In this document: positions 5,929 through 27,960 of the stretch, piece after piece
Numbering within the stretch: the first letter of the stretch is position 1
How the letters are laid out: the number at the start of each line of letters is the position of its first letter
Origin: Candidatus Velthaea sp.
Lineage (GTDB): Bacteria > Vulcanimicrobiota > Vulcanimicrobiia > Vulcanimicrobiales > Vulcanimicrobiaceae
Length of the DNA stretch: 64,000 nt
NCBI GenBank assembly: GCA_050012475.1
Contig: JBEKHC010000003.1
Span: 41,454 to 105,453, forward strand
Reading direction: 5' to 3'
The notes under the pieces: model-generated
Databases searched by the model: none
What the model was told of the DNA's origin: nothing
What the model saw: the letters and a program-made list of their open reading frames with translations, nothing else
Program-made: the position numbers and the translations under genes

Positions 5929-5973
5929 ATCCCTCTTTTCACTATGGCTGCTGCCGACCCAGGCTAGTATGGT
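5929..5973 (+). promoter_or_regulatory. Regulon promoter copy 1 (TTCACTAT box, -10 TATGGT)
   Basis: atccctctt-TTCACT-24 nt-TATGGT (5968-5973), upstream of the ORF at 6021. Confidence 0.55.
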
Positions 5974-6020
5974 AGCCAGAGAACAGCGTGGCGTTCAGCC
6001 GGGAGGGACGAAGTTCGGAA

Positions 6021-6407
6021 ATGAAGCGCGTAAAGGTCCATACACGCCTGGAGATCGAGCGCGCGCTTCGGGAGCGTATGGTCCCGTGTACGGACAACCG
6101 TGAGGCCCTCGTTGAACTCGGGTTCATGCCGGCGTATCCGCACCTCGCGCACGATGTCTACTACGGCACTCTTTGGACGCGCGCAGTCGATGCGAACAAC
6201 GATCCGGCCGTCCCGCCGCGCCCGAATGCGAAAATGCTCGTCGTGGAGCGAGCCGTTCACATTGCTGCAAAGCGCCGCACCCACCGCATCCGCTTACGAC
6301 GCGCCGGACGTTGCCTGGCCGTCACGACGCGCAACCGCGCCTATTGCCCCTTACCTGCACGCCGCCTTGTCGGCCTCGTCGTTCGTGAGCGTGACCCCGG
6401 GCCGTGA
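6021..6407 (+). CDS. Hypothetical protein
   Basis: ATG 6021 after GGGAGG, preceded by a regulon promoter; no recognisable domain. Confidence 0.45.
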   Translation: MKRVKVHTRLEIERALRERMVPCTDNREALVELGFMPAYPHLAHDVYYGTLWTRAVDANNDPAVPPRPNAKMLVVERAVHIAAKRRTHRIRLRRAGRCLAVTTRNRAYCPLPARRLVGLVVRERDPGP

Positions 6408-6417
6408 CGACGGCCTT

Positions 6418-7416
6418 TTAGGGTTCGAGCGCGAGGATGTGAATGCGGCCGAACGCGTCGCCCACGACGATCATCCGGTCATTCGCAAGGGTGCAGCACT
6501 GCGCGGACGCGGCGCAAAAGAATGTCGCGATCGTTGCGCCGCTCGCGAGTTCCCAGACTTTGACGGTTTGGTCCGCGGATGCGGAGACCACGCGCCGCCC
6601 GTCGGAGGTGAGCGCGACCGAAGAAACCGCGGCGGAGTGACCTTCGAGCGTCCGCAGCGCGCGGCCGCTTTCGAGGTCCCAGACCTTAACGGTCTGATCG
6701 GCGGAAGCGGAGACGGCGTGCCGTCCCTCCGGTGTAACCACGACGGCGTTGACGAGGCCCAGATGTCCGCGCAGCGTGCGCAGCTCGCGACCGCTTTCGA
6801 GTTCCCACACCTTGAGCGTCTCGTCATAGGAAGCGGAAACGGCACGCCAGCCGTCCGGCGTAACCGCGACGGCCCAGACCGACCGGGTGTGACCGCGAAG
6901 GGTCTGCACGATACGGCCGCTGTCGAGTTCCCACACCTTGAGCGTTTCGTCGGCCGAGGCCGAGATGGCGCGCCGGCCGTCAGGCGTGACGGCTACCGCC
7001 TTGACGACGTCGGCGTGGCCCGCAAACGTTCGCGTCTCCAGGCCGCTGTCGAGCTCCCATGCTTTGAGCGTGTAGTCCCACGATGCCGACACCGCGCTCT
7101 TTCCGTTCGGCGTTAGCGCGACGGCATCGACGGGGCGAGCATGTCCTTGGAGGGTCCGCAATTCCTGACCGCTTTCGATATCCCACAACTTGAGCGTGTG
7201 ATCCCAAGAGGCGGAAACGGCGCGGCGGCCATCCGGCGTTACCGCCACGGCATCAACCCGGCCGGCGTGACCTTGAAGAACTCGCGATCCGCGAGCATCG
7301 GCGGCGCGTCGATCGTCAGGGCCTGCATAAAACTCCGCCCCGTAGCCCGCCAGCGCCCGAAGCAAAGGAACGTTCCCCGGAATCCCCGGTGCAGCCCCGA
7401 TCTCACTCATTTCCAT
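6418..7416 (-). CDS. WD40-repeat beta-propeller protein
   Basis: About seven 42-aa repeats of the form LxGHxxxVxAVAVTPDGRRAVSASxDxTLKVWxLESG; AAGGAG RBS. Confidence 0.92.
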   Translation of the reverse strand: MEMSEIGAAPGIPGNVPLLRALAGYGAEFYAGPDDRRAADARGSRVLQGHAGRVDAVAVTPDGRRAVSASWDHTLKLWDIESGQELRTLQGHARPVDAVALTPNGKSAVSASWDYTLKAWELDSGLETRTFAGHADVVKAVAVTPDGRRAISASADETLKVWELDSGRIVQTLRGHTRSVWAVAVTPDGWRAVSASYDETLKVWELESGRELRTLRGHLGLVNAVVVTPEGRHAVSASADQTVKVWDLESGRALRTLEGHSAAVSSVALTSDGRRVVSASADQTVKVWELASGATIATFFCAASAQCCTLANDRMIVVGDAFGRIHILALEP

Positions 7417-7789
7417 CGCTTCTCCTTTTTGCTGTGCGATAAACGCAACGGCGCTGCTACGACACCTTCGCTAACATCAATGCGATCGGGGCTGCTCCGA
7501 TTTAGCCCTGGACGTCGTCGCTACGCGGCTCATTTGCTGAAGCAAACTTCGCCGCTGTGCTCCTCGCCAGGACGACTACTGTTCATGCGGCATTGTATGA
7601 CAACGACAAATATATCACGATTGTACTCCAAACGTTATCCGCGCGCAGTTACTTTGATCCATCTCGGCGCGCCGGCAATCCGACGCGAGCACGAGCCGTT
7701 CTTTGGTCTACGCACGTTTCATCGTTGCGCCGCAGCGCGCGATAAGCACACCGCTCAGAGCCCGTACCGCGATAAACCAGCTCGTACAT

Positions 7790-7834
7790 TCCATGTTTTT
7801 CACGGTACCGCAGATGGCAAGCGTGCGCTAGAAT
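7790..7834 (+). promoter_or_regulatory. Regulon promoter copy 2 (TTCACGGT box, -10 TAGAAT)
   Basis: tccatgttt-TTCACG-24 nt-TAGAAT (7829-7834). Confidence 0.65.
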
Positions 7835-7983
7835 AGGTATGCTCCGCTCAATCTCTCGGCTCGACCGATTCTTTGAAAGCGGACTTCGCTGACTCGTCGA
7901 CTTCCAGCCCGCAATGGGCTCATTTCGAGCTATCAGCAGTGCCTATCGCGAAATTCACCGCGACCAACAAACAAAGGACATTC

Positions 7984-8226
7984 ATGGAAACAAAAAGCGA
8001 ACTCACGAAAGTCATCGACAAGGTCACCGAGACCGCCGACAACGTCAAAGGCGCGGCGACCGAATTCGTTCATCGGGCAGCCGCGGAGGCCGAGCAGGAA
8101 AAGCGCATTCTGGCCGGAGACACCATGACGACCGATGCAAAGGCAAGCTCGATGCTCAACGAAGCAAAACAGACGGCGCAAGGCGACGTCGAAGCGATGA
8201 AGCGCACCGAGCGCAACAAGGCGTAA
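7984..8226 (+). CDS. Small hydrophilic helical protein (stress/LEA-like composition)
   Basis: AAAGGA RBS, ATG 7984; 80 aa rich in K/E/A/T (METKSELTKVIDKVTETADNVKGAATEF...). Confidence 0.75.
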   Translation: METKSELTKVIDKVTETADNVKGAATEFVHRAAAEAEQEKRILAGDTMTTDAKASSMLNEAKQTAQGDVEAMKRTERNKA

Positions 8227-8239
8227 CTTTCCAGCAGTC

Positions 8240-8265
8240 GCAGAGGGCGCTCGAACGCTCTCTGC
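8240..8265. terminator. Hairpin between convergent genes
   Basis: GCAGAGGGCG-CTCGAA-CGCTCTCTGC inverted repeat. Confidence 0.45.
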
Positions 8266-8339
8266 AACTGCTCCGGCTTGGATTGACGACGGTTCACTCA
8301 GAAGTAGTTCCGGCGCGGTTCGAGATTTCGGCCGCATCG

Positions 8340-9584
8340 TTAGGCCCCGGATGACGCGGCCGAAGCTGCGGGCACGCCGTCGCCTTCCTCGTCGGACGAC
8401 GCGAAGATCGTCGCAAACGTGTGGCGTGCAACCATCAGGTTCTCGTTCGCGGCGATCACGCGCACGACGACGTGCGCGCTGTCATCCGAGATGATCCCCT
8501 CGCCGGCGGCGTTGCGGATCGAATCGAGATCGATCCCGAGATTGCTCAGGTTCGCGCAGATCTCGCTCCGAATCGCGGCCGAGCCTTCACCGATCCCACC
8601 GGTGAAGACAAGGGTGTCGAGCCCGCCCAACACGGCGACGAGTGCGCCGACATGCTTCTTGGCCTGGTAGACGAAAAGTTCGACGGCTTCCGCTGCGGCG
8701 ACGTCGGTCGCGCGCCGCGCCAAGAGCGTCCGCATATCCGCGCTAATTTGCGAAACGCCGAGCAGACCGCTGTGCTCGGTCAGCACGGTGTCCAGTTCTG
8801 CGGGCGTGTAGCGTCCGGCGCGCAAGAGGTACAACAGCGCACCCGGATCGAGATCGCCCGGTCGCGTCCCCATCATGAGCCCGCCCAGCGGGCTGAAGCC
8901 CATCGTGGTATCCACCGGCTTCCCGTTGCGCATCGCAGCCAGGCTGGCGCCGCTGCCGAGGTGCGCAACGATCATCAAACCACGCGTGCCTGCATTCCCG
9001 AGTTCGCGGACGATCGACTCGTACGACAGACCGTGGAAGCCATACCGGCGCACGCCTTCCGAGCGCAGCTCGCGCGGCAGCGGCAGACGCTGCGCTACCA
9101 TCGGCATGCGATGATGGAAGGCCGTGTCGAAGCACACCACCTGCGGCGTTCCCGGTAGCGCGGTTTCGATCTCGCTGATCGCAGCGAGGGCCGCGGCCAA
9201 ATGGAGCGGATCGAACGGTACGAGCGAGGCAAGACTCGTCATCAGCTCGGCGGTGACAGCCGCCGGCTCCGTATGCTGCGGTCCGCCGTACACCACGCGG
9301 TGGCCAACCCCGTCGATGGAAATACCAAGCTCGGACAGCAGCCCGAACAGCGCAGCAATCGGCGTCGCCGCGCCCAACGGGCGCCGCGACTCGCGTGGTT
9401 GAGGACCGCGCCGGTCACGAATGCGTAACTCGGCCCCGGGCCCTCCGATGCGCTCGATACCGCCTTCAACCACGAGCTGCTCGCACGACGCTCCCAAGTC
9501 ATACACTGCGACCTTGAGTGTTGCCGAGCCGCAGTCGACGCCCAAGATGCGGCGCCGATCTGTTTGCGCGCTTGTTCCGGTCAT
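8340..9584 (-). CDS. ackA: Acetate/propionate kinase
   Basis: DCGSATLK, GHRVVYGG, FDTAFH, RRYGFHGLSY, HLGSGAS, DTTMGFSPLGGLMMGTRPGDLDPG, FTGGIGE. Confidence 0.93.
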   Translation of the reverse strand: MTGTSAQTDRRRILGVDCGSATLKVAVYDLGASCEQLVVEGGIERIGGPGAELRIRDRRGPQPRESRRPLGAATPIAALFGLLSELGISIDGVGHRVVYGGPQHTEPAAVTAELMTSLASLVPFDPLHLAAALAAISEIETALPGTPQVVCFDTAFHHRMPMVAQRLPLPRELRSEGVRRYGFHGLSYESIVRELGNAGTRGLMIVAHLGSGASLAAMRNGKPVDTTMGFSPLGGLMMGTRPGDLDPGALLYLLRAGRYTPAELDTVLTEHSGLLGVSQISADMRTLLARRATDVAAAEAVELFVYQAKKHVGALVAVLGGLDTLVFTGGIGEGSAAIRSEICANLSNLGIDLDSIRNAAGEGIISDDSAHVVVRVIAANENLMVARHTFATIFASSDEEGDGVPAASAASSGA

Positions 9585-9588
9585 GCCG

Positions 9589-11928
9589 TCACCCCACGGC
9601 GAAGCGGCGGAACATCGCCAGCTTCACGGTATCGAGCAGGAACGCAAACGCCGTTGCCGCGACGAACAGCCCGGCGATGATCGCGAGCGGCAGCGCGTGC
9701 ATGAGGATGCCCCGTGCGGCAAGGATGGCGACGATACCGGCGTCGGCAACCGAGGATGCCAAAAGCCAGCGACTCGGCAGAGAACTCCAAAGATGATCTC
9801 GCTCGCGCACAACGTACAACACCGCTTGACCGCTGAAAACCAGCGTCACTACAGCGAATGTCTGCAATGCCGGCGTGCTCAGCGAGAAGGCGACCTTTCC
9901 CATCACGAGGCAGGCGATGCAGAAAACGAGGTCGGCCGCGCCCATTGCGGTCCCGGCAAGCGTGAGATTTCGGATGTGCCAGACGCTCGGCTTCGATGAC
10001 GGACGCACGTTATCGGTCGACGACGACATGGCGAGAAAATCTCCGATAACCATCATCAACACCATGAGCGTCGGCGTGAGGATCGCGTGCCCGGTGAGGA
10101 TCAGCCCGGCCGCCAAGAACAGCACCTGATTGATCTTGTGCGTGATCGACCGCAGCGTGTAGGTGAGAATCCGCTGGAACGTCGTTCGCCCCTCGGTAAC
10201 CGCGGCGACGACGCCGCCCAGACCCGGTTCCGTGAGCACGATACCGGCAGCCGACTTCGCGACGTCGGTTGCCGTCGATACGGCGATCCCCATCTGGGCT
10301 TGGCGCAAGGCGGGAGCGTCGTTTGCGCCGTCGCCGCCGACGCCGACGATATGACCATCCTTTTGCAGCGCCTTGACGAGAAAGAACTTGTCCTCCGGCA
10401 GCACGCCGGCAAAGATCGCGAACGTTTCGGCTCGCAGATCGTGCGGCAGCGGCGTCGTTGCCGACATCGCACCGGTGATGCCCACCGCACTCGCTACGAA
10501 TCGTGCGGTCGCCGGCGCATCGCCCGTGACCATGACGGTCCGAACCCCGAGTGCGGCTAATTGCGCGACGAGCGCGGCCGCGTCGTCGCGCGGCGGATCG
10601 CTCAAGGCGATGAGGCCGGCGAGCGCGAGTTGGCCATGCGGTCCGGCGGCGACGGCAAGGACGCGACCGCCGCTCGCCTCGAGCTTGCCGACGAGCGCCA
10701 GCGCCGCAGCGTCGCTTTTCGCCCGGTCGGCGACGACGGAGAAGGCGCCCTTGACGACCTGCAGCACGGCGCCGCTCGCTTCGCGCACGATTGCTTCCGA
10801 ACGTTTGCGTTGCGGATCGAACGGGACGAAGGAGACGAGTGCCGGCTCGTCGTTCGGGGATGCGCGCAATGCACAACTGCGAACGGCAGCGTCGACGGGA
10901 TCCGCGCCGCTCACGGAACTTGCCAGAGCTGCCAGCGCGAGGACGTGCGCTTCGTCGAACGGCGCGAACGCGTGCACGGAGATGACGGCGAGTTCGTTAC
11001 GCGTCAGCGTTCCGGTTTTGTCCGAGCAGAAGACGTCGATGCCTGCCGCTTCGTCGACTGCCGACAAACGCGTCGGCAAGACGCCGCGGCTGGCCAGCGA
11101 TCGGGCGCCGATCGCCGCTGCGAGCGTGAACATCGACGGCAGCGCAACCGGGATCGACGCGAGGACCGCGACGAGCACGAGCGGGATGATCTCGGTGCGC
11201 GGCATCGGTGACAGCAGCGCGTACGCCGTCAGCATCACGGTCACCGCACCGTTGAAGATCACTAGGTTGCGGACCACGCCGAAGATGGTTTTCTGCTGCG
11301 TGCTCTCGACGGCGGCCGTCCGAATGAGCTCGGCCGTGCGGCCGAATTTGGTGCGTTCGCCGGTCGCCGACACCAGGGCCAGCGCCGCACCGCGGCGCAC
11401 CAGTGCGCCCGCGTACGCATCGAAGCCCGGTCCGGCCTCGACCGGCAGCGACTCCCCGGTGAGCATGGACTCATCGATGAGGACTGCTCCCGAGAGCAGC
11501 CGGACGTCGGCGGGGACGACGGCGCCCAGGGTGAGATTCACCACGTCGCCCGCCACCAGATCGGCAGCCGGCAAGGTGATCCACCGTCCGTCACGCTTCA
11601 CGGGCGCGTTGAGCGCCAGGCGCGACTTGAGCGCATCGAGCGTGGCCTGCGAGCGCGTCTCTTGAATGACGCTCAGCGCGGCATTGAACACCAGCAGCAG
11701 CGCGATGACTGCCGCCTCCGGGTAGTCGTGCAGCCCGAGCGCAAGCAGAATCGCGGCCTCGAGCATCCAGGGTATCGGCGCCCACAACTTCTCGAGGGCA
11801 CGCCGAAGCGGCTGCGGCGCTACGTCGACGATTGCGTTCGCACCACCATGCGCGAGGCGCGTGCGCGCTTCGCCCGCCGTCAACCCGGCTGCGGGGTCGG
11901 AGGCGGATCGCTCGTCAGACGTAATCAC
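9589..11928 (-). CDS. Type IIIA plasma-membrane proton-efflux P-type ATPase (copy 1)
   Basis: WAPIPWMLE, TGES, IPVALP, SDKTGTLT, PFDP, GDGANDAPAL; TM6 Asp in GDF. Confidence 0.88.
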   Translation of the reverse strand: MITSDERSASDPAAGLTAGEARTRLAHGGANAIVDVAPQPLRRALEKLWAPIPWMLEAAILLALGLHDYPEAAVIALLLVFNAALSVIQETRSQATLDALKSRLALNAPVKRDGRWITLPAADLVAGDVVNLTLGAVVPADVRLLSGAVLIDESMLTGESLPVEAGPGFDAYAGALVRRGAALALVSATGERTKFGRTAELIRTAAVESTQQKTIFGVVRNLVIFNGAVTVMLTAYALLSPMPRTEIIPLVLVAVLASIPVALPSMFTLAAAIGARSLASRGVLPTRLSAVDEAAGIDVFCSDKTGTLTRNELAVISVHAFAPFDEAHVLALAALASSVSGADPVDAAVRSCALRASPNDEPALVSFVPFDPQRKRSEAIVREASGAVLQVVKGAFSVVADRAKSDAAALALVGKLEASGGRVLAVAAGPHGQLALAGLIALSDPPRDDAAALVAQLAALGVRTVMVTGDAPATARFVASAVGITGAMSATTPLPHDLRAETFAIFAGVLPEDKFFLVKALQKDGHIVGVGGDGANDAPALRQAQMGIAVSTATDVAKSAAGIVLTEPGLGGVVAAVTEGRTTFQRILTYTLRSITHKINQVLFLAAGLILTGHAILTPTLMVLMMVIGDFLAMSSSTDNVRPSSKPSVWHIRNLTLAGTAMGAADLVFCIACLVMGKVAFSLSTPALQTFAVVTLVFSGQAVLYVVRERDHLWSSLPSRWLLASSVADAGIVAILAARGILMHALPLAIIAGLFVAATAFAFLLDTVKLAMFRRFAVG

Positions 11929-12012: not shown

Positions 12013-12058
12013 ACTTTAGCACCCGGCGAACGTGACCGGCAATCGTGAAAATGGCGGA
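12013..12058 (-). promoter_or_regulatory. Regulon promoter copy 3 (drives ATPase-ackA)
   Basis: Minus strand tccgccatt-TTCACGAT...TGC-TAAAGT; 25-nt spacing after TTCACG. Confidence 0.6.
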
Positions 12059-12100
12059 TCGGGGCGTTCGCATCAGTGCGCCGGCAACGGCCGAACGAGG

Positions 12101-12145
12101 TCCATGTATTTCACGATACCCTCTCGACCTGCGCTGCGCTACAAT
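12101..12145 (+). promoter_or_regulatory. Regulon promoter copy 4 (drives slipin to xfp operon)
   Basis: tccatgtat-TTCACG-24 nt-TACAAT (12140-12145). Confidence 0.7.
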
Positions 12146-12248: not shown

Positions 12249-13070
12249 ATGTTCACGCTCGCAGGTCTGTTAGGCCCGTTCGCTCTCATCATCCTCGTTT
12301 TTATTCTCGTCAATGCGTCGGTGCGCGTGTTGCGCCAGTACGAGCGTGGCGTCATGTTCACCCTCGGACGCTTCTCCAGCGTCCGCGGGCCAGGTTTGAT
12401 CTTTCTGGTTCCCTACATCCAGCAGATCGTGCGCGTCGACTTGCGGACCGTCGTGATGGAAGTCCCGAGTCAGGACCTCATCTCGCGCGACAATGTCTCG
12501 GTCAAGGTCGACGCCGTGCTCTATTTCCACGTCGTCGATCCCGAGAAAGCCGTCATCGCGGTCGAACAGTATGCCGCAGCGACGAGCATGCTGGCGCAGA
12601 CGACGCTGCGCTCCGTCCTCGGGCAGCACGAACTCGACGAAATGCTCTCCAAGCGGGCTACGCTCAATACCGACATCCAGGATATCCTCGATTCGCGCAC
12701 CGAGGAGTGGGGGATCGAAGTGACCGCCGTCGAGATTCGCGACGTGCAGCTGACCGACAATATGGTCAAAGCCATTGCAAAGCAAGCCGAAGCCGAGCGC
12801 GACCGGCGCGCGAAAATCATCCACGCCGACGCGGAATTCCAAGCCTCGCAAACGTTGGTGAACGCGGCCAAGATCCTAGCTTCCGTTCCGGCCGCGATGC
12901 AGCTTCGCTATCTGCAGACCCTCTCGGAAATCGGCGGTGAGAACAACTCGACCGTGATCTTCCCGATGCCGCTCGACATCATCAAGCCATTCTTGGACAT
13001 CGCGAACAAAGACGCGGCGGCGGCCGCGGCTGCGGCGGCGAACAACAACCTGAAGCTGCCGGTGCTATGA
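12249..13070 (+). CDS. Slipin/stomatin-like SPFH (band 7) protein
   Basis: N-terminal TM, QYERGVMFTLGRF, RVDLRT, QDLISRDNVSVKVDAV, AQTTLRSVLG, QAEAERDRRAKII. Confidence 0.92.
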   Translation: MFTLAGLLGPFALIILVFILVNASVRVLRQYERGVMFTLGRFSSVRGPGLIFLVPYIQQIVRVDLRTVVMEVPSQDLISRDNVSVKVDAVLYFHVVDPEKAVIAVEQYAAATSMLAQTTLRSVLGQHELDEMLSKRATLNTDIQDILDSRTEEWGIEVTAVEIRDVQLTDNMVKAIAKQAEAERDRRAKIIHADAEFQASQTLVNAAKILASVPAAMQLRYLQTLSEIGGENNSTVIFPMPLDIIKPFLDIANKDAAAAAAAAANNNLKLPVL

Positions 13071-13534
13071 CGCTTGCCGGGCCGGCCCCGGGACGCGATG
13101 ACTTCTTGACCCGCACGACGCTGCAACTGGACGAAGGCCTCTCGCTGCCCTCGGTCGCTGGGCTCATCAAAACGCTGCAGCGCGTCCCGGGGGTCTTGCT
13201 GGCCGAGATCGCCGCGGGCAGCGCCCGCGCGGTCGTCGCGCACGACGCCGCCGTGCCTGGCGCGTCGCTGCTGGCGGCCGCCGCACGCGCCGGCGTGCAC
13301 GCGACGATCGTGGCCGACACGCGCCCGCCGGTTGCACCGGTCGAAACGGCTGCGCCGCCCGCACTGTCGCGCGACCGACGCATCTTTGCGCTCGCAGCAG
13401 CACTGCTCTTCCTCTTGGCGCTCGGCGAGGCCGTCTTTCCCCGGCTTACGAGCAATCACTATTTGCTGCCGGTGCTGCTCTCGTCGCTCTGGGCGTTCGT
13501 CATCGCGCGCATGTTGTTCAAGCGGCGGAAGTAG
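13067..13534 (+). CDS. HMA-like ferredoxin-fold domain with two C-terminal TM helices; no CxxC
   Basis: LIKTLQRVPGVLLAEI...AVVAHD resembles the HMA fold; ATGA overlap with slipin. Confidence 0.6.
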   Translation: MTLAGPAPGRDDFLTRTTLQLDEGLSLPSVAGLIKTLQRVPGVLLAEIAAGSARAVVAHDAAVPGASLLAAAARAGVHATIVADTRPPVAPVETAAPPALSRDRRIFALAAALLFLLALGEAVFPRLTSNHYLLPVLLSSLWAFVIARMLFKRRK

Positions 13535-13595
13535 CATTCGCTCACCGCCGCGCGTCCCGGCTTCTCAAACACCAGCTCTTCGCAAGGAATTGACC

Positions 13596-14675
13596 ATGCC
13601 GACCATCTCACCGGGCATCGAATTTGAAGTGACGCGTCTGGGCGCGATCATGCGCCCGCAAGCGGGCGCGCCGCACGAAGCCTGGGGCGTCCTCAATCCG
13701 GGCGGCGTTCGTTCCGCGGACGGTACGATGCATCTCTTCCCGCGGCTGATCGCCGAAGGGAACTATTCGCGGATCGGCCACGCACGCGTTCTTTTCGACG
13801 GTGAGAACCCGGTGAACGTGGAACGGCTGGGGCTCGCCCTCGAGCCGCACGAGTCCTATGAAGTCAGCGCCGGTGGCGGCGGCGTCGAGGATCCGCGCGT
13901 CGTGTACGTGCCGCTGCTCGAACGTTATGTGATGACGTATACGGCATTCGTCCCGTACGAGCCGCGTGTCGCCATCGCCGTTTCCGAGGATCTCCAGACC
14001 TGGCAGCGACTCGGTGTGTTGCGCTTCGCGGTGAAACCCGGTGCAGCGGATCTCAACAAATGCGGCAATAAGGACGCGGCGCTCTTTCCCGATGTCATCT
14101 CGGATCCCAAGGGCGTCCCGTCGCTGGGGATCTTGCACCGGCCGACGACGCGAATGCACTTTCGCCGCCATCATAAGGGCACGGCGGTCACCAAGCCTCC
14201 GAGCGGCGACGAGACCCAAGAGAACATCTGCATCTCCTATATCCCAGTCGATGCGGTTCTCGCCGACATCGGAAACCTGACCGCGGTGCGGCGCCACGAA
14301 CGCGTTCTCGCACCCGAGCAGCCGTGGGAAATGCAGAAAGTCGGAACCGGCGCCCCGCCCGTCCGGCTTCCATACGGTTGGGTGCTGCCGTATCATGCGG
14401 TCTCGGCTCCCGGCGGGCGCTCGCGCTATTGCATGGGGATCGCAATTCTCGATCTGCAGCGGCCGGCGCGGGTGCTCTACCGCACGCCGCTGCCGGTCCT
14501 CGAGCCGGAAACGGACTACGAGTGCAACGGCCTCGTCGACGATGTCGTCTTTCCCTCAGCGACCGATCTGCGCGCCGACGGAGCCCTCGACGTGTACTAC
14601 GGCGCAGCGGATCACGTGATCGCCGCGGCGCGCGTCACCTTGCCACGCGACTTCCCCGCTTCGGCGTCGAAATGA
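13596..14675 (+). CDS. Glycoside hydrolase family 130 (PH1107-like) glycosidase/phosphorylase
   Basis: VLNPG, GVEDPRV, YVMTYTAF, NKDAALFP, LHRP, WEMQKVGTGAPP, VVFP, YYGAAD; AAGGA RBS. Confidence 0.85.
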   Translation: MPTISPGIEFEVTRLGAIMRPQAGAPHEAWGVLNPGGVRSADGTMHLFPRLIAEGNYSRIGHARVLFDGENPVNVERLGLALEPHESYEVSAGGGGVEDPRVVYVPLLERYVMTYTAFVPYEPRVAIAVSEDLQTWQRLGVLRFAVKPGAADLNKCGNKDAALFPDVISDPKGVPSLGILHRPTTRMHFRRHHKGTAVTKPPSGDETQENICISYIPVDAVLADIGNLTAVRRHERVLAPEQPWEMQKVGTGAPPVRLPYGWVLPYHAVSAPGGRSRYCMGIAILDLQRPARVLYRTPLPVLEPETDYECNGLVDDVVFPSATDLRADGALDVYYGAADHVIAAARVTLPRDFPASASK

Positions 14676-14688
14676 AAGACGGCGTGCC

Positions 14689-17214
<2,526 letters not shown>

Positions 17215-20407: not shown

Positions 20408-20420
20408 CAGGTCATCTCCA

Positions 20421-20921
20421 TCAGCAAGAAAAGAGGTGGCGGTCTTTGCGGCCGGCAGTCGTTTCCGCCGACGCACGCTCGACGTGATCGGCGATCGACC
20501 GCAGGAAACCGCAGACGAAACCTCGAGCGACCCGCTTGCCGAGTCCCGCATCGAACACCGCCCCGGCGGCGCCGAAGGGCACCTGGTAGTGTCCAGACAG
20601 AACGAGGCTGAAACGATCGCGGAGCAACGTTCTTTCAACCGCTAACGCACCGGCGAACTCCGGAAACGCGCCGCCGTCGGCGGACGACAAAGCGATGGAA
20701 TAGGTCGGGTGCGAATCGGCCGCCGACGAAAGCGAATAAAACGACGCGACCGCGCGCTGCTCCAGCGCCACTTTCCAGGCCGCGAACATCGTTATCGGCA
20801 AACGCAGCGCGATACTCAGCGAACCGTTCACGTCGCGGTGTTCGGCGACGAACGCCGCCAGACGTTGCGCGGCTTCGTGCTGCGCGCAATGAACGACGAG
20901 CCGCTCGCAGATATCCGGCAT
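20421..20921 (-). CDS. Hypothetical protein, possible SRPBCC/Bet v1-like fold
   Basis: FPEFAGAL...LSGHYQVPFGAAGAVFDAGLGKRVA pattern; RBS before ATG 20921. Confidence 0.7.
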   Translation of the reverse strand: MPDICERLVVHCAQHEAAQRLAAFVAEHRDVNGSLSIALRLPITMFAAWKVALEQRAVASFYSLSSAADSHPTYSIALSSADGGAFPEFAGALAVERTLLRDRFSLVLSGHYQVPFGAAGAVFDAGLGKRVARGFVCGFLRSIADHVERASAETTAGRKDRHLFSC

Positions 20922-21045
20922 TGGAAGGCCCTTCGATCGACCGCGTGACGGCAGCCGCAAACACGTTCGATGATGCCCGTCGGCGCGGAATGCGGCGTGA
21001 TCGCCGGCGGACTCGTGCGGCAGGAGCTGATCGAACGACATGGTT

Positions 21046-21090
21046 AGGATATCATCCAGGCCGCGCCAACCGTATCGTGAAAACAGTGGA
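21046..21090 (-). promoter_or_regulatory. Regulon promoter copy 5
   Basis: Minus strand tccactgtt-TTCACG-24 nt-TATCCT. Confidence 0.65.
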
Positions 21091-21132
21091 TCGCGGGGGC
21101 AACCGCCCTGGGGGTCTTGGTCGAGTCCGCGC

Positions 21133-21876
21133 TTAGGAGCCCCAGGCCGCGGCAGTGGGAACCGGGGTGAGGCGAGCGGCTACTGGGCGCCGACTTGCTG
21201 GAAGCGTGCGCAGCGCGAGCGCAGCGGCGTCGTCGCCGCCGCGCCGAGTCCGAAACACGCGGCGCGCGATCGCGCGGGCAGCATTGAGTTCAGGCAAGCC
21301 GTGCACGACTCGGACCGCTTCGACGAGGTCGGCTTCGCCGCGCACGGGATCCCGCTGATGCTCGGTTATCCCGTCCGTGTAGAACACCACGAGCGCATCC
21401 GCGGGAAGCGCGACCACGTAATCCGCGCCAAGATAGCTGGAGAAAATTCCCAGCGGCAGGTCGGCTGGAGGCTGGTGCAAAAACGCGTGGCCGTCGGCAG
21501 TCAACACCAGCGGCGGCGGATGTCCGGCGTTTGCAAAAGCGAGCGTGCCGAAACGCCGGTCGAGAACGGCGACGATGGCGGTTGCGATCACGCCGTTGAC
21601 GCAGGTGTAGGCAACGTCGTTGAGGACCGCCAGGACGTCCGACGGAATGCGAATCTCGCCGATCGCTCGGAGCGCCGCCGCACGCATCACCGCCATCGCC
21701 TCGGCCACGCTTTCGCCGTGTCCCGAAACGTCGCCGATCGTCAATGCCATGACGTGTTCGGAGAGCGCGAAGGCCTCACACCAGTCTCCACCGCTTTGTG
21801 CGCCGCCTATGGGCGAATTCCAGGCCGTCAAGCTGGCATCGAAAGCGGCAATGCCGCGTTCGCCGTCAGCGATCAC
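21133..21876 (-). CDS. PP2C-type (SpoIIE/RsbU) serine phosphatase, stand-alone
   Basis: GGDWC, IGDVSGHG, NAGHPPP, YTDGITE, DDAA; GTGA overlap with the upstream receiver gene. Confidence 0.88.
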   Translation of the reverse strand: MIADGERGIAAFDASLTAWNSPIGGAQSGGDWCEAFALSEHVMALTIGDVSGHGESVAEAMAVMRAAALRAIGEIRIPSDVLAVLNDVAYTCVNGVIATAIVAVLDRRFGTLAFANAGHPPPLVLTADGHAFLHQPPADLPLGIFSSYLGADYVVALPADALVVFYTDGITEHQRDPVRGEADLVEAVRVVHGLPELNAARAIARRVFRTRRGGDDAAALALRTLPASRRPVAARLTPVPTAAAWGS

Positions 21877-22265
21877 GCGGCGGCAAAACGCGGATCGGTG
21901 TAACAACCGCTATGCAGCGCACTGCGCACGCCGTGCGCCAGTGTGCGTTCGTCAGCGTCTTTCGAGAGGATACAGTTGACTCCGGCGAGGTGGCAAGCCA
22001 CGCCCCAGGTGCTCTTCATGAGATCCGTATACACGGCGATCAGACACTCGGGCAGCACGAACCGGATTTGGCGCAGCAGCTCGAGGGCATCGACCTTCGA
22101 GTGATCGACGTCGCAGATGAGCAAGTTGGGCGCCAGCCGGCCCAACTCGGTTACGTCGAGTCGAGCGATCACCGGGCCAGCGAGGACTCCTGCCATTTGC
22201 AAGGCAGAATCGAACACCGGAACCCTCGTACGGTCGATGCCGGCTAGGCAGCACACGTAAGCCAT
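21873..22265 (-). CDS. Atypical stand-alone receiver (REC) domain protein
   Basis: PNLLICDVD...LELLRQIR...IAVYT...AGVNCILSK follows REC topology; the N-terminal acidic pair is degenerate. Confidence 0.7.
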   Translation of the reverse strand: MAYVCCLAGIDRTRVPVFDSALQMAGVLAGPVIARLDVTELGRLAPNLLICDVDHSKVDALELLRQIRFVLPECLIAVYTDLMKSTWGVACHLAGVNCILSKDADERTLAHGVRSALHSGCYTDPRFAAA

Positions 22266-22413
22266 ACGGAAAACGCTTTCAGGAGTGAACGGGCGCGAAA
22301 CCGAGATCGCGGAAAATACTAGAGCGCGGGGGACCAGTTATCCGGTCGCTGCGCGTCGAACGCTCGATAACTGTACCATCTCGAACGAGGCGAACACATC
22401 GTTAAAAAGGCCG

Positions 22414-23471
22414 ATGAGAGGGCGAATCCGAGCAAACGCGCCCACCCTGCCGATAGCGCGGCCGGCTCTCCGCTTCCGCTGCATGCCTCGCTGTCGAAAT
22501 CCGACCCCGCGTACCCGATCGTTTCGGGTATTCTGAGCGTTGTGCCGGCCTCGCAGTGGACCTTTGCGCGCGTGCAGCCCAACGGCGATCTCGACGCGCT
22601 TTTCGGTTCGCACGGCAACGGCAAGGCACGCGCCGTCCTCACCGACGAGCTCAAACGTCAACGGCTCAAGGCTCCGATTGGGCCCCGGATCGCCGCGACG
22701 CTCGGACCGTTGGACGCCTTCGCGAGCGGCATCACGCTCCTTTTCGCCGACGCCCGCTCCAATTTCGGGATCCTTACGCTGCTGCGGACCACGGAATTGG
22801 GACCGTTCACCGCCAGCGAGATCAGCATGCTGACGTTCGCCCTCGACGCCCTGTCGGATCGCCTCTCCGCGCTGCGCCTGCAGCCGGAAGCAAAGGAAAA
22901 TGGCTTTCTGCCCCATCGTGCGGAGACCCGGATGAGTCCGGAGCCGCCCGAGGGAGCGTTCTACGTCCTCGACAGCGACCTGCAGATCGTCTTGGCCTGG
23001 AGCGCGGAAGACGAACGCCGGATCGCCTTGACCGGACTGCACACGCGCATCGCCGAGCGTCTCCCCGTCGTGCTCGAACAGACCGTGCGCGAATTGACCT
23101 CGGCTTGGTCCGGCGACGCGCTCAAAGCCCGCAGCGCCGCGCGCGCGGCCTCGTTCCTCGTCGTCCGTACCCAACCGATGTCCGGTCCGGCCGGGCTCTT
23201 CATCGGGGTCCGGATCGATCGCTTCCAGCCGCCGAACTCGCTCACCGGCGCGGCTTCCCGCTTCCACATCTCACCCCGCGAAGTGCAGGTTCTCGCGCTG
23301 CTGCTCGACGGCAAGCACCTCGATCAGATCGCCGAGCAGCTGCACATCACGTCGTCAACCGTTCAAGATCACATCAAGAGCATGCTCGACAAAACCGGCA
23401 GCGGGAACCGCAGCGAACTCATCGCGCGCGTGCTGGGCTGGGAGTCGCCGCCGCGAGCCGAACAGGCGTAG
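22414..23471 (+). CDS. LuxR-family HTH transcriptional regulator (open frame from 22542; probable start ATG 22414 needs one extra G at 22420-22422)
   Basis: C-terminal ISPREVQVLALLLDGKHLDQIAEQLHITSSTVQDHIKSMLDK...NRSELI; N-terminal GAF/PAS-like sensor region. Confidence 0.85.
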
Positions 23472-23498
23472 CGTTTCGGCAACGCCGAAGCCGCCGGT

Positions 23499-23543
23499 CC
23501 CCCGGATTTCACGATACCAGTCGGCTCTCGGCTGCGCTATAGT
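23499..23543 (+). promoter_or_regulatory. Regulon promoter copy 6 (drives aspT-aspD)
   Basis: cccccggat-TTCACG-24 nt-TATAGT (23538-23543). Confidence 0.7.
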
Positions 23544-23628: not shown

Positions 23629-25338
23629 ATGACGATCCTTCATCAGCTCCTCAAGGGCGAGCCGCTGCTCGCGCTATTTGCCACGATCGCGCTCGGCTAT
23701 CTCGCCGGGAAAATCAAAATCGGCAGCTTCGTCTTGGGCGGTATTGCCGGAACGCTCCTCGTCGGTGTGATCGTCGGCCAGCTGGACGTGCAGTTGGACG
23801 GCGGCATCAAGACGATCTTTTTTGCGCTGTTCATCTACGCCGTCGGTTACCAGGGCGGCCCGCAGTTTTTCCACGCCCTCAATCGGCGTTCGCTCAACCA
23901 GCTCGCGTCGGCATTCGTCATGTGTTTGACCGGTCTGCTGTGCGTGTTGATCGCGGCTTGGATGTTCGGCCTCGATCGCGGAATGGCAGCCGGATTGGCC
24001 GCCGGCGGCTTGACCCAATCGGCGATCATCGGCACCGCCGGCGACGCGATCGCCCGCTTGGGACTGTCACCGGCTGCGATAAAAGCCATGCAGACCAACG
24101 TCGCCGTCGGTTACGCCGTGTGCTACATCTTCGGCTCGCTGGGACCGATCCTCATGGTCACGTGGTTTTTCCCCGCGATCATGAAATGGAACATTCGCCA
24201 AGAAGCGGTGAAGTTGGCGAAGCAACTGTCCGGCGGCCGAGCCGAACTCGACCCCGGTCAATTCAATGCCGTGCGCGACATCGACACCCGCTTCTATGAA
24301 ATCGCGCCGGCCAGCAAGGCCGTCGGCCAGACGGCGCTCGCGATCGACAAGCTGCTTTCGGACGCCGCGGTCGAGGCCATCTTCCGCAACGGCGCCGCGG
24401 TCGAATTCACCGGCAGCACGGTCGTTCAGGCGCGGGACAGCGTCGCGGTCACCGGAACGATCCGCGTCATGGAAACGGCTTCGGACTTTTTCGGTCACGA
24501 GGTGATTGCTCCGAACAATCCCACGCTCGTTCAAGAGAGCCGCGAACTCATTTTGACCAACCGCGGGCTGAGCGGCCGGACCATCGACGACGTCCACGCG
24601 AACGTCAGCGTCGAGACGCGGCACGGCGTTTTCCTGACGGCGATCCGACGGATGGGACGCGATCTGCCGCTGCTGGGGAACCTGAAGTTGCAAAGCGGCG
24701 ACGAACTGCACTTGACGGGCAGTCCGGGCGATCTCGATCGCGTGCAAACCAAGATCGGGTACAAAATATCGGCGTCGGCGGTCACCGACTTCGTCTTCTT
24801 CGGCATCGGCATCGTGACGGGAATGCTGCTGGGTTTGATTCAATTCAAACTTTGGGGTGTTCCGATCACCATCGGCAGCGGTGCGGGGTGCTTGCTCTCC
24901 GGCTTATTTTTCGGCTGGCTGCGCAGCGTCCATCCAAGATTCGCCGCGCTTCCGCTGGGCGCGTCGACGTTTTTGCGCGATTTCGGGTTGGCCGTTTTCG
25001 TCGGCACGGTCGGCATCGCCGCGGGACCGCCGGCCCTCGTCGCCATCCAGCACTCCGGCTTGACGCTTTTGTTTCTCGGTGTCGCCGTTACGCTGATCCC
25101 TCAAATCGTTACGTTCTTCTTCTCCTACTACGTACTGCGCATCAAAAATCCGATCGAAGCGCTGGCCTGCGTGGCCGGCGGCCGCAGCGCGAATCCGGCG
25201 TTCGCCGCTTTACTATCGAAGACCGGAAACGCAACGCCCGTCGCCGCGTTCACGGTCACCTATGCCGTCGCGAATGTTTTTCTCACCCTCTGGGGTCCCG
25301 TGATCGTCGGTATCATCGCCAAGAACGCGACCCATTGA
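23629..25338 (+). CDS. aspT: Aspartate:alanine antiporter
   Basis: FIYAVGYQGGPQFF, AGGLTQSAIIGTA, central TrkA-C-like region, second AAE TM block; upstream of aspD. Confidence 0.92.
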   Translation: MTILHQLLKGEPLLALFATIALGYLAGKIKIGSFVLGGIAGTLLVGVIVGQLDVQLDGGIKTIFFALFIYAVGYQGGPQFFHALNRRSLNQLASAFVMCLTGLLCVLIAAWMFGLDRGMAAGLAAGGLTQSAIIGTAGDAIARLGLSPAAIKAMQTNVAVGYAVCYIFGSLGPILMVTWFFPAIMKWNIRQEAVKLAKQLSGGRAELDPGQFNAVRDIDTRFYEIAPASKAVGQTALAIDKLLSDAAVEAIFRNGAAVEFTGSTVVQARDSVAVTGTIRVMETASDFFGHEVIAPNNPTLVQESRELILTNRGLSGRTIDDVHANVSVETRHGVFLTAIRRMGRDLPLLGNLKLQSGDELHLTGSPGDLDRVQTKIGYKISASAVTDFVFFGIGIVTGMLLGLIQFKLWGVPITIGSGAGCLLSGLFFGWLRSVHPRFAALPLGASTFLRDFGLAVFVGTVGIAAGPPALVAIQHSGLTLLFLGVAVTLIPQIVTFFFSYYVLRIKNPIEALACVAGGRSANPAFAALLSKTGNATPVAAFTVTYAVANVFLTLWGPVIVGIIAKNATH

Positions 25339-25359
25339 TCCACGCATCGGAGCACCATC

Positions 25360-26994
25360 ATGCCTTCTACCGACTATAGCGACCTCGAAGACCTGAGCCC
25401 ATTCGAGCTCAAAGACCGGCTCATCGAGATCGCCTCGTCCGACTCCGCGCGGCTGATGCTCAATGCGGGCAGAGGGAATCCCAATTTCGTCGCAACGCTG
25501 CCGCGGTGGGCGTACCTGAGCGTTGGTGAGTTCGCACTGCTGGAGTCCGAACGGTCGTATTCGCATCTGAAGGTCGGCTTGGGCGGGCTGCCCGAGCGGG
25601 CCGGACTCATGCAGCGCTTCGAGACGTACGTGGCCGCTCACCCGCGTGCAGCGGGTGTCATCTTCTTGCGCGAGGCGCTGGCCTTGATCAAGGACCGTCT
25701 CGGGCTCAACGAAGAAGACCTGCTGCTGGAGTTCGTCGCTGCGTTCCTGGGCTGCAACTACCCGACGCCGCCGCGAATGCTGCCGATCACGGAAACGATC
25801 GTCAAGGCATATCTCGCTCAGGAGCTCTTTGGGAGCGTTCGGGTCCGCTCGGATTTTTCGCTCTTCGCGACCGAAGGCGGGACGGCGGCGATGACCTATA
25901 TCTTTCAAAGCTTACACGCGAACGAGCTCATCGATCCAGGCGACAAGATCGCGATCGTCACGCCGATTTTTTCACCATATTTGGAAATCCCCGTGCTCGA
26001 CGAATACAGCCTGGACGTGGTGGACATTCGGATGGATGAAAACGACGACTGGCAGCTTCCGGATGCCGAGATCGACAAGCTCCTTGACCCGAAGATCAAA
26101 GTGCTGTGTCTGGTAAACCCGAGTAATCCCCCGTCGACCAAACTCACCGACGCCGTATTGGACAAGATCGCGACGCTCGTCAACACCCAACGCCCCGACC
26201 TGCTCATCGTTACCGACGTCGTCTACGCGACCTTTGCCGACGACTTCGTTTCGCTGTTCGCAAAGTGCCCGTACAACACGCTGTGCGTCTACTCGTTCTC
26301 CAAGTACTTCGGGGCCACCGGATGGCGCCTTGGCGCAATCGGCCTGCACGACCGCAACGTCTTCGACTCCGCGCTCGCAGCGCTGGCCGAGGGCCGCAAG
26401 GCATTGCTCGATACCCGCTATTCGTCGTTGACGACCCAGCCGCGGAAGCTGAGTTTCCTCGACCGTTTGGTTGCCGACAGTCGTGCGGTGGCGCTCAACC
26501 ATACCGCCGGTCTGAGCCTGCCGCAACAGCTGCAGATGGCATTGTTTGCCCTGCACGGCCTGCTGGATCGCGAAGACCGCTACAAGAATGCGGCGAAGGA
26601 GCTCATCCGCGAACGGTATCAGACGCTCTACGCCAACATGGGAGTCGAAGCAGTCCGTACGCCCAGCGATGTCGACTACTATTCCTTGATCGATCTGCAG
26701 ACCATCGGCGCATCTCTCTATGGCCCCCAGTTCGAGGCCTGGTTCACCAAAAATGACCTGGGAACGAGTTACCTCTTCCGCCTCGCCAAAGAAACTGGCG
26801 TCGTGCTTCTGCCCGGGAGCGGCTTCGAGGTCGTCGACACGTCGGCGCGGATTTCGCTGGCCAATTTGACCGACAGCGAGTACGCTTCGATCGGCCGATT
26901 CACGCGCCAAGTTCTCGATGAATACTACGTTGACTTCAAGAAAACGTTGGCGGCGACGAACGGATCAGCCGCGCATGCCGGTGCCAGCCGATGA
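25360..26994 (+). CDS. aspD: Aspartate 4-decarboxylase
   Basis: LSPFELKD, LNAGRGNPN, EGGTAAM, VNPSNPPS, SFSKYFGATGWRLG (PLP Lys), LNHTAGLSLPQQ. Confidence 0.95.
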   Translation: MPSTDYSDLEDLSPFELKDRLIEIASSDSARLMLNAGRGNPNFVATLPRWAYLSVGEFALLESERSYSHLKVGLGGLPERAGLMQRFETYVAAHPRAAGVIFLREALALIKDRLGLNEEDLLLEFVAAFLGCNYPTPPRMLPITETIVKAYLAQELFGSVRVRSDFSLFATEGGTAAMTYIFQSLHANELIDPGDKIAIVTPIFSPYLEIPVLDEYSLDVVDIRMDENDDWQLPDAEIDKLLDPKIKVLCLVNPSNPPSTKLTDAVLDKIATLVNTQRPDLLIVTDVVYATFADDFVSLFAKCPYNTLCVYSFSKYFGATGWRLGAIGLHDRNVFDSALAALAEGRKALLDTRYSSLTTQPRKLSFLDRLVADSRAVALNHTAGLSLPQQLQMALFALHGLLDREDRYKNAAKELIRERYQTLYANMGVEAVRTPSDVDYYSLIDLQTIGASLYGPQFEAWFTKNDLGTSYLFRLAKETGVVLLPGSGFEVVDTSARISLANLTDSEYASIGRFTRQVLDEYYVDFKKTLAATNGSAAHAGASR

Positions 26995-27347
26995 TTGATG
27001 CACCCGCGGCACCTCCGCAGCTGATACGAACCGCCACCGGCGCGACCTTTCGACGCTTGATTCTCGAAGGCGCCGGGCCAATCGTGGTCGAGTTCATGGC
27101 GTACGGCTGCGCGCATTGCCGCGCGCTCGAGCCGGTGCTCAAGCAGGTGACCCGAATGCTCGGTTCGGCAGAGCAGGTGTTCCGAGTGAACGTCGCCGTC
27201 GACGAGGAACTGGCGAACAGCTACGAGATCGGTGCAACCCCGACGCTGCTTATGTTTTTGGACGCAAAGGAAGTGGGGCGACTCGAAGGGCCGCGCCCTG
27301 TGGTAGCCAGCCTCCTAAGTGCGGTCGTAACACCATTCTCTTCATGA
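26991..27347 (+). CDS. Thioredoxin family protein
   Basis: EFMAYGCAHC (CxxC), ATPT cis-Pro loop; ATGA overlap with aspD. Confidence 0.88.
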   Translation: MIDAPAAPPQLIRTATGATFRRLILEGAGPIVVEFMAYGCAHCRALEPVLKQVTRMLGSAEQVFRVNVAVDEELANSYEIGATPTLLMFLDAKEVGRLEGPRPVVASLLSAVVTPFSS

Positions 27348-27937
27348 ACTGCGACAGGGCCCCGAGCCACCCGACCAAACCGGTCCTGCTGTATAACGGC
27401 GAATGCGCGGTCTGCCGTCACATCGCGCAGTGGGTACTTCAATCGGCGCGCAGCGCATCGGGCGATCCGAGCATCGTCGAACGGCCGATCGGCGACGACC
27501 CGGAGGCGCTCGCGTTGCTCAACCCGGACCTCGATATCTGGGATGCATATGCGACCGTCCATCTTCTCATGCCCGATGGATCGATAAAAACCGGCGGCGA
27601 GGCCGTGGCCGAAGTTCTGCGGCGTGTCCCCGGCGCGCGATGGTTCAGCTGGACGTTCGCGGCCGGCATTGGCGGCTTCAGACCTTTTCAGCTGCTGCTC
27701 GATGCGTGCTACGCCGCACTCGCAGCGGTTCGCCCGCTGCTGGGATGCGAGAGCTGCGGTTCGACGAACGTCTGGGTGCGATCGATCGCCCGAACAATCG
27801 CCTGGGGAAAAGCTCCGTTCGCGAAGAGCAGCGCGCCGCATCGGGTGCGACATTTCGCCGCCGCGACCGCACGCCGGTCGAGACCGGCCGAACCCAAGTG
27901 GCCCACGGCCGCGACTCCCCGAAATTCACGATGGTGA
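27344..27937 (+). CDS. DCC1-like thiol-disulfide oxidoreductase (DUF393)
   Basis: LLYNGECAVC, G.IKTGGEAV; ATGA overlap with the thioredoxin gene. Confidence 0.8.
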   Translation: MNCDRAPSHPTKPVLLYNGECAVCRHIAQWVLQSARSASGDPSIVERPIGDDPEALALLNPDLDIWDAYATVHLLMPDGSIKTGGEAVAEVLRRVPGARWFSWTFAAGIGGFRPFQLLLDACYAALAAVRPLLGCESCGSTNVWVRSIARTIAWGKAPFAKSSAPHRVRHFAAATARRSRPAEPKWPTAATPRNSRW

Positions 27938-27960
27938 ATCACGCACCGATGCGCTAAGCT
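27916..27960 (+). promoter_or_regulatory. Regulon promoter copy 7 (drives rpoZ-SDR-oleate hydratase)
   Basis: tccccgaaa-TTCACG-24 nt-TAAGCT (27955-27960). Confidence 0.65.

Follow-up and report, generated by a model that had tools for sequence, protein, structure and literature searches.

The window analysed here is a 64,000-nucleotide (nt) stretch of DNA from Candidatus Velthaea sp., a bacterium of the phylum Vulcanimicrobiota (C3:41454-105453 of a 5.36-Mb draft genome), in which a recurrent promoter box lies before a series of genes and beside the gene of a LuxR-type regulator. A first-pass annotation, made from the letters alone, had listed seven copies of this box, and on re-reading the window we found all seven coordinates and -10 hexamers to be as stated. 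The first (5928-5973, + strand; box 5928-5945, -10 TATGGT at 5968-5973) has an uncertain target, and the claim that every site stands before a gene or operon fails here, as only an unassigned open reading frame (6021-6407) and no recognised gene lies behind it. The second (7789-7834, +; -10 TAGAAT, predicted start near 7841) is followed by a gene for an 80-residue small protein with no Pfam match and a paralogue on contig C19 (7984-8226, +), which lies under the RNA contigs described below. Back to back are a box with a 25-nt spacer (12013-12059, -; TAAAGT), ahead of genes for an H+-efflux type P-type ATPase (578 bits, cut-off 615.5) and acetate kinase (8340-11928, -), and a box (12100-12145, +; TACAAT) ahead of SPFH/slipin, a 155-residue unknown membrane protein, GH130, a second H+-efflux P-type ATPase (above the TIGR01647 cut-off) and phosphoketolase (12249-19853, +). 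The fifth (21046-21091, -; TATCCT, predicted start near 21039) precedes a gene for an unknown protein of 166 residues (20421-20921). The sixth (23498-23543, +; TATAGT) sits directly behind the stop codon of the LuxR/GerE-type regulator gene (22401-23471, +), a position that recurs in many relatives, and is followed by aspT (Asp/Ala antiporter), aspD (aspartate 4-decarboxylase) and a thioredoxin gene (23629-27347, +). The seventh (27915-27960, +; TAAGCT) precedes a second rpoZ, an acetoacetyl-CoA/3-oxoacyl reductase gene and oleate hydratase (28007-30647, +). Genes after the first in each run were assigned by assumed operons.

Profile matches bore out the gene identities proposed earlier: two H+-ATPase-type pumps (one above the TIGR01647 cut-off, the other just below), ackA, xfp, slipin, GH130, aspT-aspD-trx and the second rpoZ. 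Oleate hydratase is also present, but its reading frame is broken, with one part at 29086-29715 and the other, in a second frame, at 29703-30647. The seven-site list was real but incomplete, since two further sites in the window had been overlooked. One is a box variant with a TTAACG core (22398-22415, -) which, with a -10 TACAGT at 24 nt (22370-22415, -), points into a gene divergent from the regulator; this gene encodes a stand-alone NarL/EvgA-type receiver domain of 130 residues without a helix-turn-helix (HTH) (21873-22265, -), and its stop codon is overlapped by a gene for a stand-alone PP2C (SpoIIE-type) phosphatase (21133-21876, -). The other, found by matrix scan, is a weak box (8.3 bits, 5819-5836) with a -10 TATGTT (5791-5836, -), and downstream of it lie an FAD/Fe-S 2-hydroxyacid oxidase-like gene (2606-5548) and a lactate permease gene (792-2525). 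A variant at 30684-30701 (-) indeed has no -10, as had been noted.

The layout of the seven sites likewise agrees with the earlier description. The spacer from box to -10 is 24 nt in six of the seven and 25 nt in one, TGCGC precedes the -10 in four of seven, and comparison with TTGACA at 16-18 nt spacing found no usable -35 at any box promoter checked, the best match being 4/6 once and at most 3/6 otherwise. The pattern under which the sites had been grouped fits six of the seven, but site 5938 has ATC in place of YCC. Taking +1 to be 7 nt behind the -10, the consensus W-TCC-M-Y-G-D-A-TTTCACGAT-ACC extends from -52 to -32, with the -10 at -12 to -7; read as an 18-mer (-52 to -35), the box is an imperfect inverted repeat, WTCCnnnnWTTTCACGAT, centred at about -43.5 with a strong promoter-proximal arm. 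This geometry supports the proposal of a class II activator-type site near -43. The window contains the composite pattern six times, whereas 150 third-order Markov simulations gave 0.007 on average and never more than 1, and the same logo emerged from 68 site sequences of relatives, although these were picked with the matrix and the comparison is not blind. The box is almost certainly functional. A different reading, in which the box is itself the -35 element of a sigma factor, was rejected: a -35 element would have to be 7 nt closer to the -10, which is itself of housekeeping type. Box promoters are also enriched in TGCG at -17 to -14 (TG at -15/-14 in the receiver promoter), a possible second element that was not enriched before 667 other candidate -10s and thus appears specific to box promoters.

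Scanning the whole genome confirmed that the motif lies far above background and has a clear spacing preference. A matrix built from the seven sites alone found 63 other matches of at least 16 bits, 16 of which had TAnnnT at 24 nt and one at 25 nt; with a TAnnnT background of 0.0028 per position, about 0.35 would be expected versus the 17 seen. A refitted matrix (24 sites, hence partly circular) gave 28 matches of at least 12 bits with a -10, 24 of them at 24 nt and four at 25 nt, with at most two matches at any other distance within 16-33 nt. All 28 are intergenic by the gene calls made in this analysis, and the regulon, at 28 predicted promoters, is larger than the seven first described. Twenty-one of these sites fall on two contigs, C16 and C3, that share 40 nt at their ends and so form a single stretch of about 105 kb, while the remaining seven are on C78 (two), C160 (two), C32, C1 and C176, those on C1 and C176 being weak. 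Plain TTCACG without the left arm yields only a faint spacing peak (23 at 24 nt versus 4-22 at other distances). Searches with consensus sequences for Rex, Crp, FNR, DosR and the CreB tag returned 0, 1, 3, 0 and 11 genome matches, and none of those with listed positions is on C3 or C16. In particular, all three exact copies of the FNR/FixK consensus TTGAT-N4-ATCAA in the genome lie on contigs other than C3 and C16, and the DosR core GGGACTWWAGTCCC has no match at all, in line with the earlier statement that the box differs from both. A pattern scan of metagenomes returned 117 stretches, apparently mostly chance, with a cluster-gene match in eight; these were not used further.

What lies behind the box across the genome falls into a few types. 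Pumps and exporters comprise two H+-efflux-type and one Mg-type P-type ATPase together with RND/ABC exporters; amino-acid functions comprise AspT/AspD, serine and threonine ammonia-lyases and alanine dehydrogenase; energy functions comprise phosphoketolase, acetate kinase, MaoC-phosphate acetyltransferase and transhydrogenase; and the others are a nickel-pincer isomerase, slipin, GH130, a BON protein, the second rpoZ and the split oleate hydratase. In relatives, the genes behind the box include slipin (eight cases), desaturase (four), aldehyde dehydrogenase (three) and GH130 (two), with one case each of H+-ATPase, aspT, ackA, pta, ppk2 and oleate hydratase. The target types seen in this genome recur there, and four are new: fatty-acid desaturase, aldehyde dehydrogenase, PPK2 and phasin. 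A glutamate decarboxylase behind the box in genome G053 was set aside, being just a 103-residue fragment. Proton export, decarboxylation and ammonia release have established roles in acid stress, and these target types therefore point to acid stress as the inducing condition. Usp genes and high-affinity oxidases, on the other hand, are typical FixK/FNR targets, and in this genome the box was found at none of nine Usp loci and not at cydA (cbb3 oxidase was not searched), which weakens the hypoxia reading. Of the acid/hypoxia programme suggested by the first-pass annotation, the acid half is thus favoured and the hypoxia half weakened, and we would give about even odds that the signal is acid or energy rather than oxygen, judged from predicted targets.

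The competing view is that the same box and regulator respond to low oxygen or redox, as a DosR/FixK-like dormancy programme sensed through GAF/PAS domains or through FixT-like receiver cysteines. This is the less probable alternative, and the Usp and cydA results count against it; in its favour, four of the gene types found behind the box, in this genome or in related ones, are among those that part of a Bradyrhizobium study lists as induced by microoxia (PMC6515984), namely phosphoketolase, succinate-semialdehyde dehydrogenase, phasin and alcohol dehydrogenase. The cultured relative is, in the sections of its description that treat growth, an aerobe without fermentative growth, with a pH range of 4.5-8 (PMC9758169), so that the programme would serve survival rather than anaerobic growth.

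Several of these target genes have features of their own. The split in oleate hydratase (MCRA family) near 29700 may reflect a pseudogene or an assembly error, and a longer, single-frame, box-bearing homologue exists in genome G266 (locus L219). The two rpoZ (omega) copies, at 28007-28225 in the window and at C19:26790, have near-identical N-termini, and only the window copy has a box. Second copies of slipin, GH130, ackA, ppk2 and the 166-residue gene were located at C160:4014-6269, C100:801-1472 and C65:17791-29923; the C160 copies have a box and the C65 copies have none.

The candidate activator is encoded at 22401-23471, correcting the span of 22414-23471 given earlier, which is out of frame. 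Its C-terminus is a LuxR/GerE HTH (PF00196, 47 bits; GerE structure match Z 11.1, root-mean-square deviation (rmsd) 2.2, 63 residues). The structural model has a mean predicted local distance difference test (pLDDT) score of 70.6, with a GAF fold at the N-terminus (best Z 11.1, rmsd 3.6, 125 residues) and a middle domain that is likely PAS-like, judging from matches of the model to VqmA, PpsR and FixL. As to an autoinducer-binding domain, Pfam finds HTH families only, the N-terminus best matching GAF with a further domain before the HTH, and neither Pfam nor fold comparison finds a receiver domain. The recognition helix reads SSTVQDH, with STVQDHI invariant in 37 of 37 relatives, and the conserved part of the protein starts at 22491. 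A 70% paralogue is encoded on C19. Databases label the relatives only as generic HTH or CsgD-family regulators, and the ESM Atlas returned unnamed clusters only. Among loci of close relatives, 40 of 46 come from records labelled Eremiobacteraeota, Vulcanimicrobiota or their families, the other six having another or no phylum label. For low oxygen or redox as the signal, it can be said that the GAF fold matches the GAF domains of DosS/DevS, among many others, and that the window stretch is found in peat and soil metagenomes; against it, the relatives' alignment shows no invariant His or Cys in the GAF domain for heme or Fe-S.

The box is linked to this gene. A check of motif conservation in relatives found box and spacing recurring at regulator loci and before the same gene types: in 751 kb around 46 regulator relatives, 53 of 74 box matches had a -10 at 24 or 25 nt, and most boxes directly flanked the regulator gene, either upstream and on the opposite strand or downstream. 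Furthermore, box and recognition helix go together. Pooling 86 loci (46 from the relative search and 40 hand-picked, with three partial and ten duplicate rows dropped), we found a box beside the gene at 54 of 62 loci with helix TVQDH or TIQDH and at one of three with TVQHH, and at none of the seven TAHDH paralogues or the one TVNDH paralogue. The strict box plus -10 pattern (spacers 23-24) occurred in 27 of 299 genomes of the class, and the reversed pattern in 0 of 299. The regulator was present in 23 of the 26 other strict-match genomes versus 76 of 272 without a match (Fisher p 1.5e-9, a value that is overstated, as kin are not independent). When only sites on another contig or more than 100 kb away were counted, it was found in 11 of 14 carriers; these genome tallies include the unpublished genomes G202 and G273, and without both the distant-site figure is 10 of 12. 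The exceptions among carriers are G199 (odd spacing), G202 and G226. These data establish that the box exists, that its spacing is fixed, which genes it precedes, and that it is linked to the regulator gene and recognition helix across Vulcanimicrobiota. The suggestion that the LuxR-type protein is the activator thus gained comparative support, with direct binding as the part that stays a prediction; by this comparative evidence, the binder is very likely this protein or its 70% C19 paralogue.

Two other binders have to be weighed against it. A wider factor, either an OmpR/CreB-like regulator on C32 or a Crp-family protein, might bind the box, with the LuxR-type gene as just one target. One site does precede an OmpR-type gene (C32:3586-4359; top NCBIfam hit CreB, below cut-off), TTCAC is the CreB tag core, the genome holds 14 Crp-type HTH matches over cut-off, and G226 has a site and no regulator. 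However, the OmpR-type gene is present in 226 of 299 genomes versus 27 with the strict box, box plus -10 is found at none of 11 of its orthologue loci, no Crp-type gene lies on C3 or C16, and the box tracks the LuxR recognition helix. The C32 regulator was rejected as binder on the first two counts, and a wider factor as a whole seems very improbable.

The second alternative, improbable but less so, is that a heterodimer of the LuxR-type protein and a NarL-type response regulator binds the box, with the stand-alone receiver acting as a decoy of the partner; RcsB and its partners provide the precedent. This would suit the unequal arms of the box, a sister module in which a paralogue is divergent from a full NarL-type regulator and a stand-alone receiver, and the finding that the receiver's nearest kin within the genome are the receivers of that NarL-type family. 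Yet such a NarL-type gene lies near just one of 46 regulator loci, and regulator/receiver sites have symmetric ends, ATCG-N10-CGAT, in 22 of 30 cases, as a homodimer would want. The sister three-gene module (L249-L255; G295, G290, G292, G027-G029, G031) has a GAF-type LuxR paralogue with helix ESTAHDH, no box and a conserved G-rich intergenic region. In this genome there are also six NarL-type regulators with atypical receivers, several of them without the usual acidic residues (C53:39708, C21:21356, C51:19033, C47:20225, C47:24787 and C42:24955), two of which lie beside polysaccharide-type genes.

Turning to the divergent receiver gene, its product has a NarL-type fold without HTH (pLDDT 94) that matches DesR, RcsB and VraR, and its best sequence match among solved structures is the EvgA receiver (E 3.7e-11). 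The phospho-acceptor D52 is kept, as are Thr and Lys in most of the main clade, with Lys lost in part of a side clade. The acidic pair after beta1 that forms the Mg2+ pocket is absent: here G9-I10-D11 come after beta1 (5-8), and relatives have non-acidic residues at this place. Cysteines occupy positions 5, 6, 74, 91, 98 and 121, and D52, C91, H92 and C121 are invariant in 32 of 32. The invariance of C91, H92 and C121 would fit oxygen or redox sensing; on the other side, the receiver does not have the clustered four-cysteine FixT motif (C53/56/59/64), and C91 is common to EvgA and local NarL-type regulators and may thus be inherited. Regulator and receiver co-occur closely (93 of 99 regulator genomes, 93 of 95 receiver genomes). 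At 12 of 38 related loci the receiver gene is followed by one for a PP2C phosphatase, with three more looking similar by eye, and no conserved kinase gene was found beside the module among related loci. It is a tentative suggestion, slightly short of even odds and drawn by analogy, that the receiver inhibits the activator as a feedback brake.

The box at 22398-22415 probably has a second role to play. On the + strand it reads CGTGAA in relatives and holds the regulator's likely start codon, GTG in most relatives and GTT in the window (22401-22403). Among 39 relatives of at least 55% identity, 36 have this codon in the frame of the regulator with no stop in between, over 15 spacer lengths (GTG 31, CTG 3, GTT 2), an in-frame stop lies 12-30 nt upstream of it in 14 of 30, and database gene calls often start there. 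On these grounds translation of the regulator very probably begins within the box itself in main-clade genomes. The side clade (L038, L041-L045, L047, L265-L268) is organised otherwise, with an upstream box and then an inverted half-site, no -10 at 24 nt, and a box out of frame with the regulator. In many relatives TA(C/G)CAT, at 22374-22379 (+) in the window, shares its TA with the -10 of the receiver promoter, and it could be an overlapping regulator promoter.

RNA evidence comes from contigs of three metatranscriptomes of one study, in which 24 pieces are listed; such contigs show neither starts, strand nor level, and one study provides no replication. Contig ends at 7851-7852 (where three contigs begin), 21026-21027 and 22355 lie 8-13 nt behind three of the eight predicted starts, on the right side, and at least three such matches arose in 30 of 200,000 trials of random placement. 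The other five promoters have no listed contig end, and none of the listed pieces covers 22356-22446. The RNA contig ends are consistent with the promoter model. Contigs that start behind the 7799 promoter run on (7851-9486) through the 3' part of the opposed ackA, either by read-through or as merged convergent transcripts.

How does this compare with known systems? Sections of two papers describe LuxR-family class II promoters with inverted repeats of 18-20 base pairs (bp) at about -42.5 to -45 (PMC3376562, PMC3907764). As with TraR, the tra box, TraM and TrlR of Agrobacterium, and LuxR with the lux box, there is a LuxR-type HTH and, here in imperfect form, a repeat that overlaps the -35 region. 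In the portions of PMC3907764, PMC3376562 and PMC13043044 dealing with TraR, TraM and TrlR, the activator induces a small partner gene, as is predicted here. Unlike TraR and LuxR, the present regulator has a GAF and a likely PAS domain and, by Pfam, no autoinducer-binding domain, its box is a different, lopsided one, the partner is a receiver domain, the targets are stress genes and a box covers the regulator's own likely start codon. The FixLJ-FixK-FixT system of Caulobacter and rhizobia offers, in part of PMC7078487, a cysteine-bearing single-domain receiver under regulon control as negative feedback, which is also the arrangement predicted here, where the 130-residue receiver lies behind the regulon's own box and -10; target types overlap as well, as far as excerpts of PMC6515984 show. 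Unlike that system, there is no kinase in the module, the activator is LuxR-type and not Crp-type, the cysteines lie outside the FixT motif (C53/56/59/64, Caulobacter), and Usp and cydA are not targets.

EvgS/EvgA of E. coli resembles the present system in that the EvgA receiver is the best solved match and in its decarboxylase/antiporter-type targets, whereas EvgA is a receiver-HTH protein with a kinase and here the receiver stands alone, the HTH being on the GAF-containing protein. The EvgA box probably also differs from the box here. EvgAS responds to mild acid, according to part of PMC8174306. Among best whole-protein Foldseek matches of the regulator are DhaR(N) and PpsR, with low TM-scores (about 0.2) and different output domains, so that the resemblance is one of parts only. 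Both DhaR and PpsR are partner-controlled regulators. Mycobacterial DosR/DevR, a LuxR-type HTH regulator with a clustered survival regulon, is similar in both respects; here, in contrast, no receiver is fused to the HTH and there are no Usp targets. By the features tested, the predicted system would operate as LuxR-family class II regulons with an induced partner do, and it lies outside the AHL (acyl-homoserine lactone), FNR/FixK, DosR and FixT families.

The explanation we favour, with a probability of roughly 0.6, is that the LuxR-type protein binds the box, recruits sigma-70 polymerase and turns on acid/energy stress genes. A dimer would sit on the imperfect 18-bp inverted repeat, centred at about -43.5, as a class II activator, and would bring RNA polymerase to promoters that have no -35. 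The genes induced would serve proton export, amino-acid decarboxylation and substrate-level ATP formation, probably under acid and energy stress. At the copy over its own start codon, the bound activator would shut off its own gene and at the same time switch on the divergent receiver gene. The receiver, which lacks a DNA-binding domain and belongs to a module that contains no kinase, might dampen the activator as a brake of the kind known from TraM, TrlR and FixT; this is the weakest step. A more elaborate version, which we hold to be unlikely, is a kinase-free partner switch in which the cysteine-rich receiver would sense the pH or redox state of the cytoplasm and directly bind the GAF-PAS-LuxR activator, while one 18-bp element would be activator site, self-repression site and start codon, with GTG/CTG/GTT variants tuning binding and translation together.

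Apart from the inflated p value, several observations weigh against activation through this LuxR-type protein. The left arm of the box is just partly symmetric with the right, and at target sites it is degenerate. Eight of the 62 loci with the TVQDH/TIQDH helix have no box of at least 10 bits; 76 of 99 regulator genomes have no strict match, the pattern being narrow and variant boxes occurring; and G226 (93% complete) has a textbook site before slipin and just a distant paralogue was found there. The linkage could also arise if an upstream factor controlled the regulator gene. Only two of 15 side-clade cases have the box in frame, and the window's GTT, with the same letters in an independent DNA contig, is a poor start codon, so that the C19 paralogue, which has kept GTG and lost the -10 and the receiver, may account for some of the activity. 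Finally, several energy targets overlap the Bradyrhizobium microoxic response, as reported in part of PMC6515984.

Elsewhere in the window, a complete chemosensory cluster without a box adjoins the regulon stretch (35510-46538, -) and encodes two methyl-accepting chemotaxis proteins, CheA, a triple CheW, CheB, CheR, two CheY and a HEAT-repeat protein. The gene at 32635-34179 (-) encodes a protein with weak VWA7_N/Het-C matches. An extracytoplasmic function (ECF)-type sigma factor gene (47948-49711, -) lies near an RsbW-like HATPase gene, a possible partner of the PP2C phosphatase.

In the literature searched, mostly open papers without supplements or motif databases of the RegPrecise type, we found no description of the box, the regulator family or the layout, and no regulon described for Vulcanimicrobiota. 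Members of this phylum (Eremiobacterota) occur widely in soils and peat, and the first one brought into culture was described in 2022, according to part of that description (PMC9758169). Since the box is defined, a candidate activator is named and about 28 promoters are predicted, the system can be tested without growing the organism itself, either in vitro or in a heterologous host, and the box offers a read-out for peat metatranscriptomes. It ties several proteins whose functions are not known, from the slipin operon, GH130, small proteins and a second RNA polymerase omega subunit, to one putative stress programme. The box over a start codon and the stand-alone receiver would make an unusual feedback design in an otherwise familiar type of activator and, if the partner switch is real, acid survival in a widespread and almost uncultured soil phylum would be under its master control.

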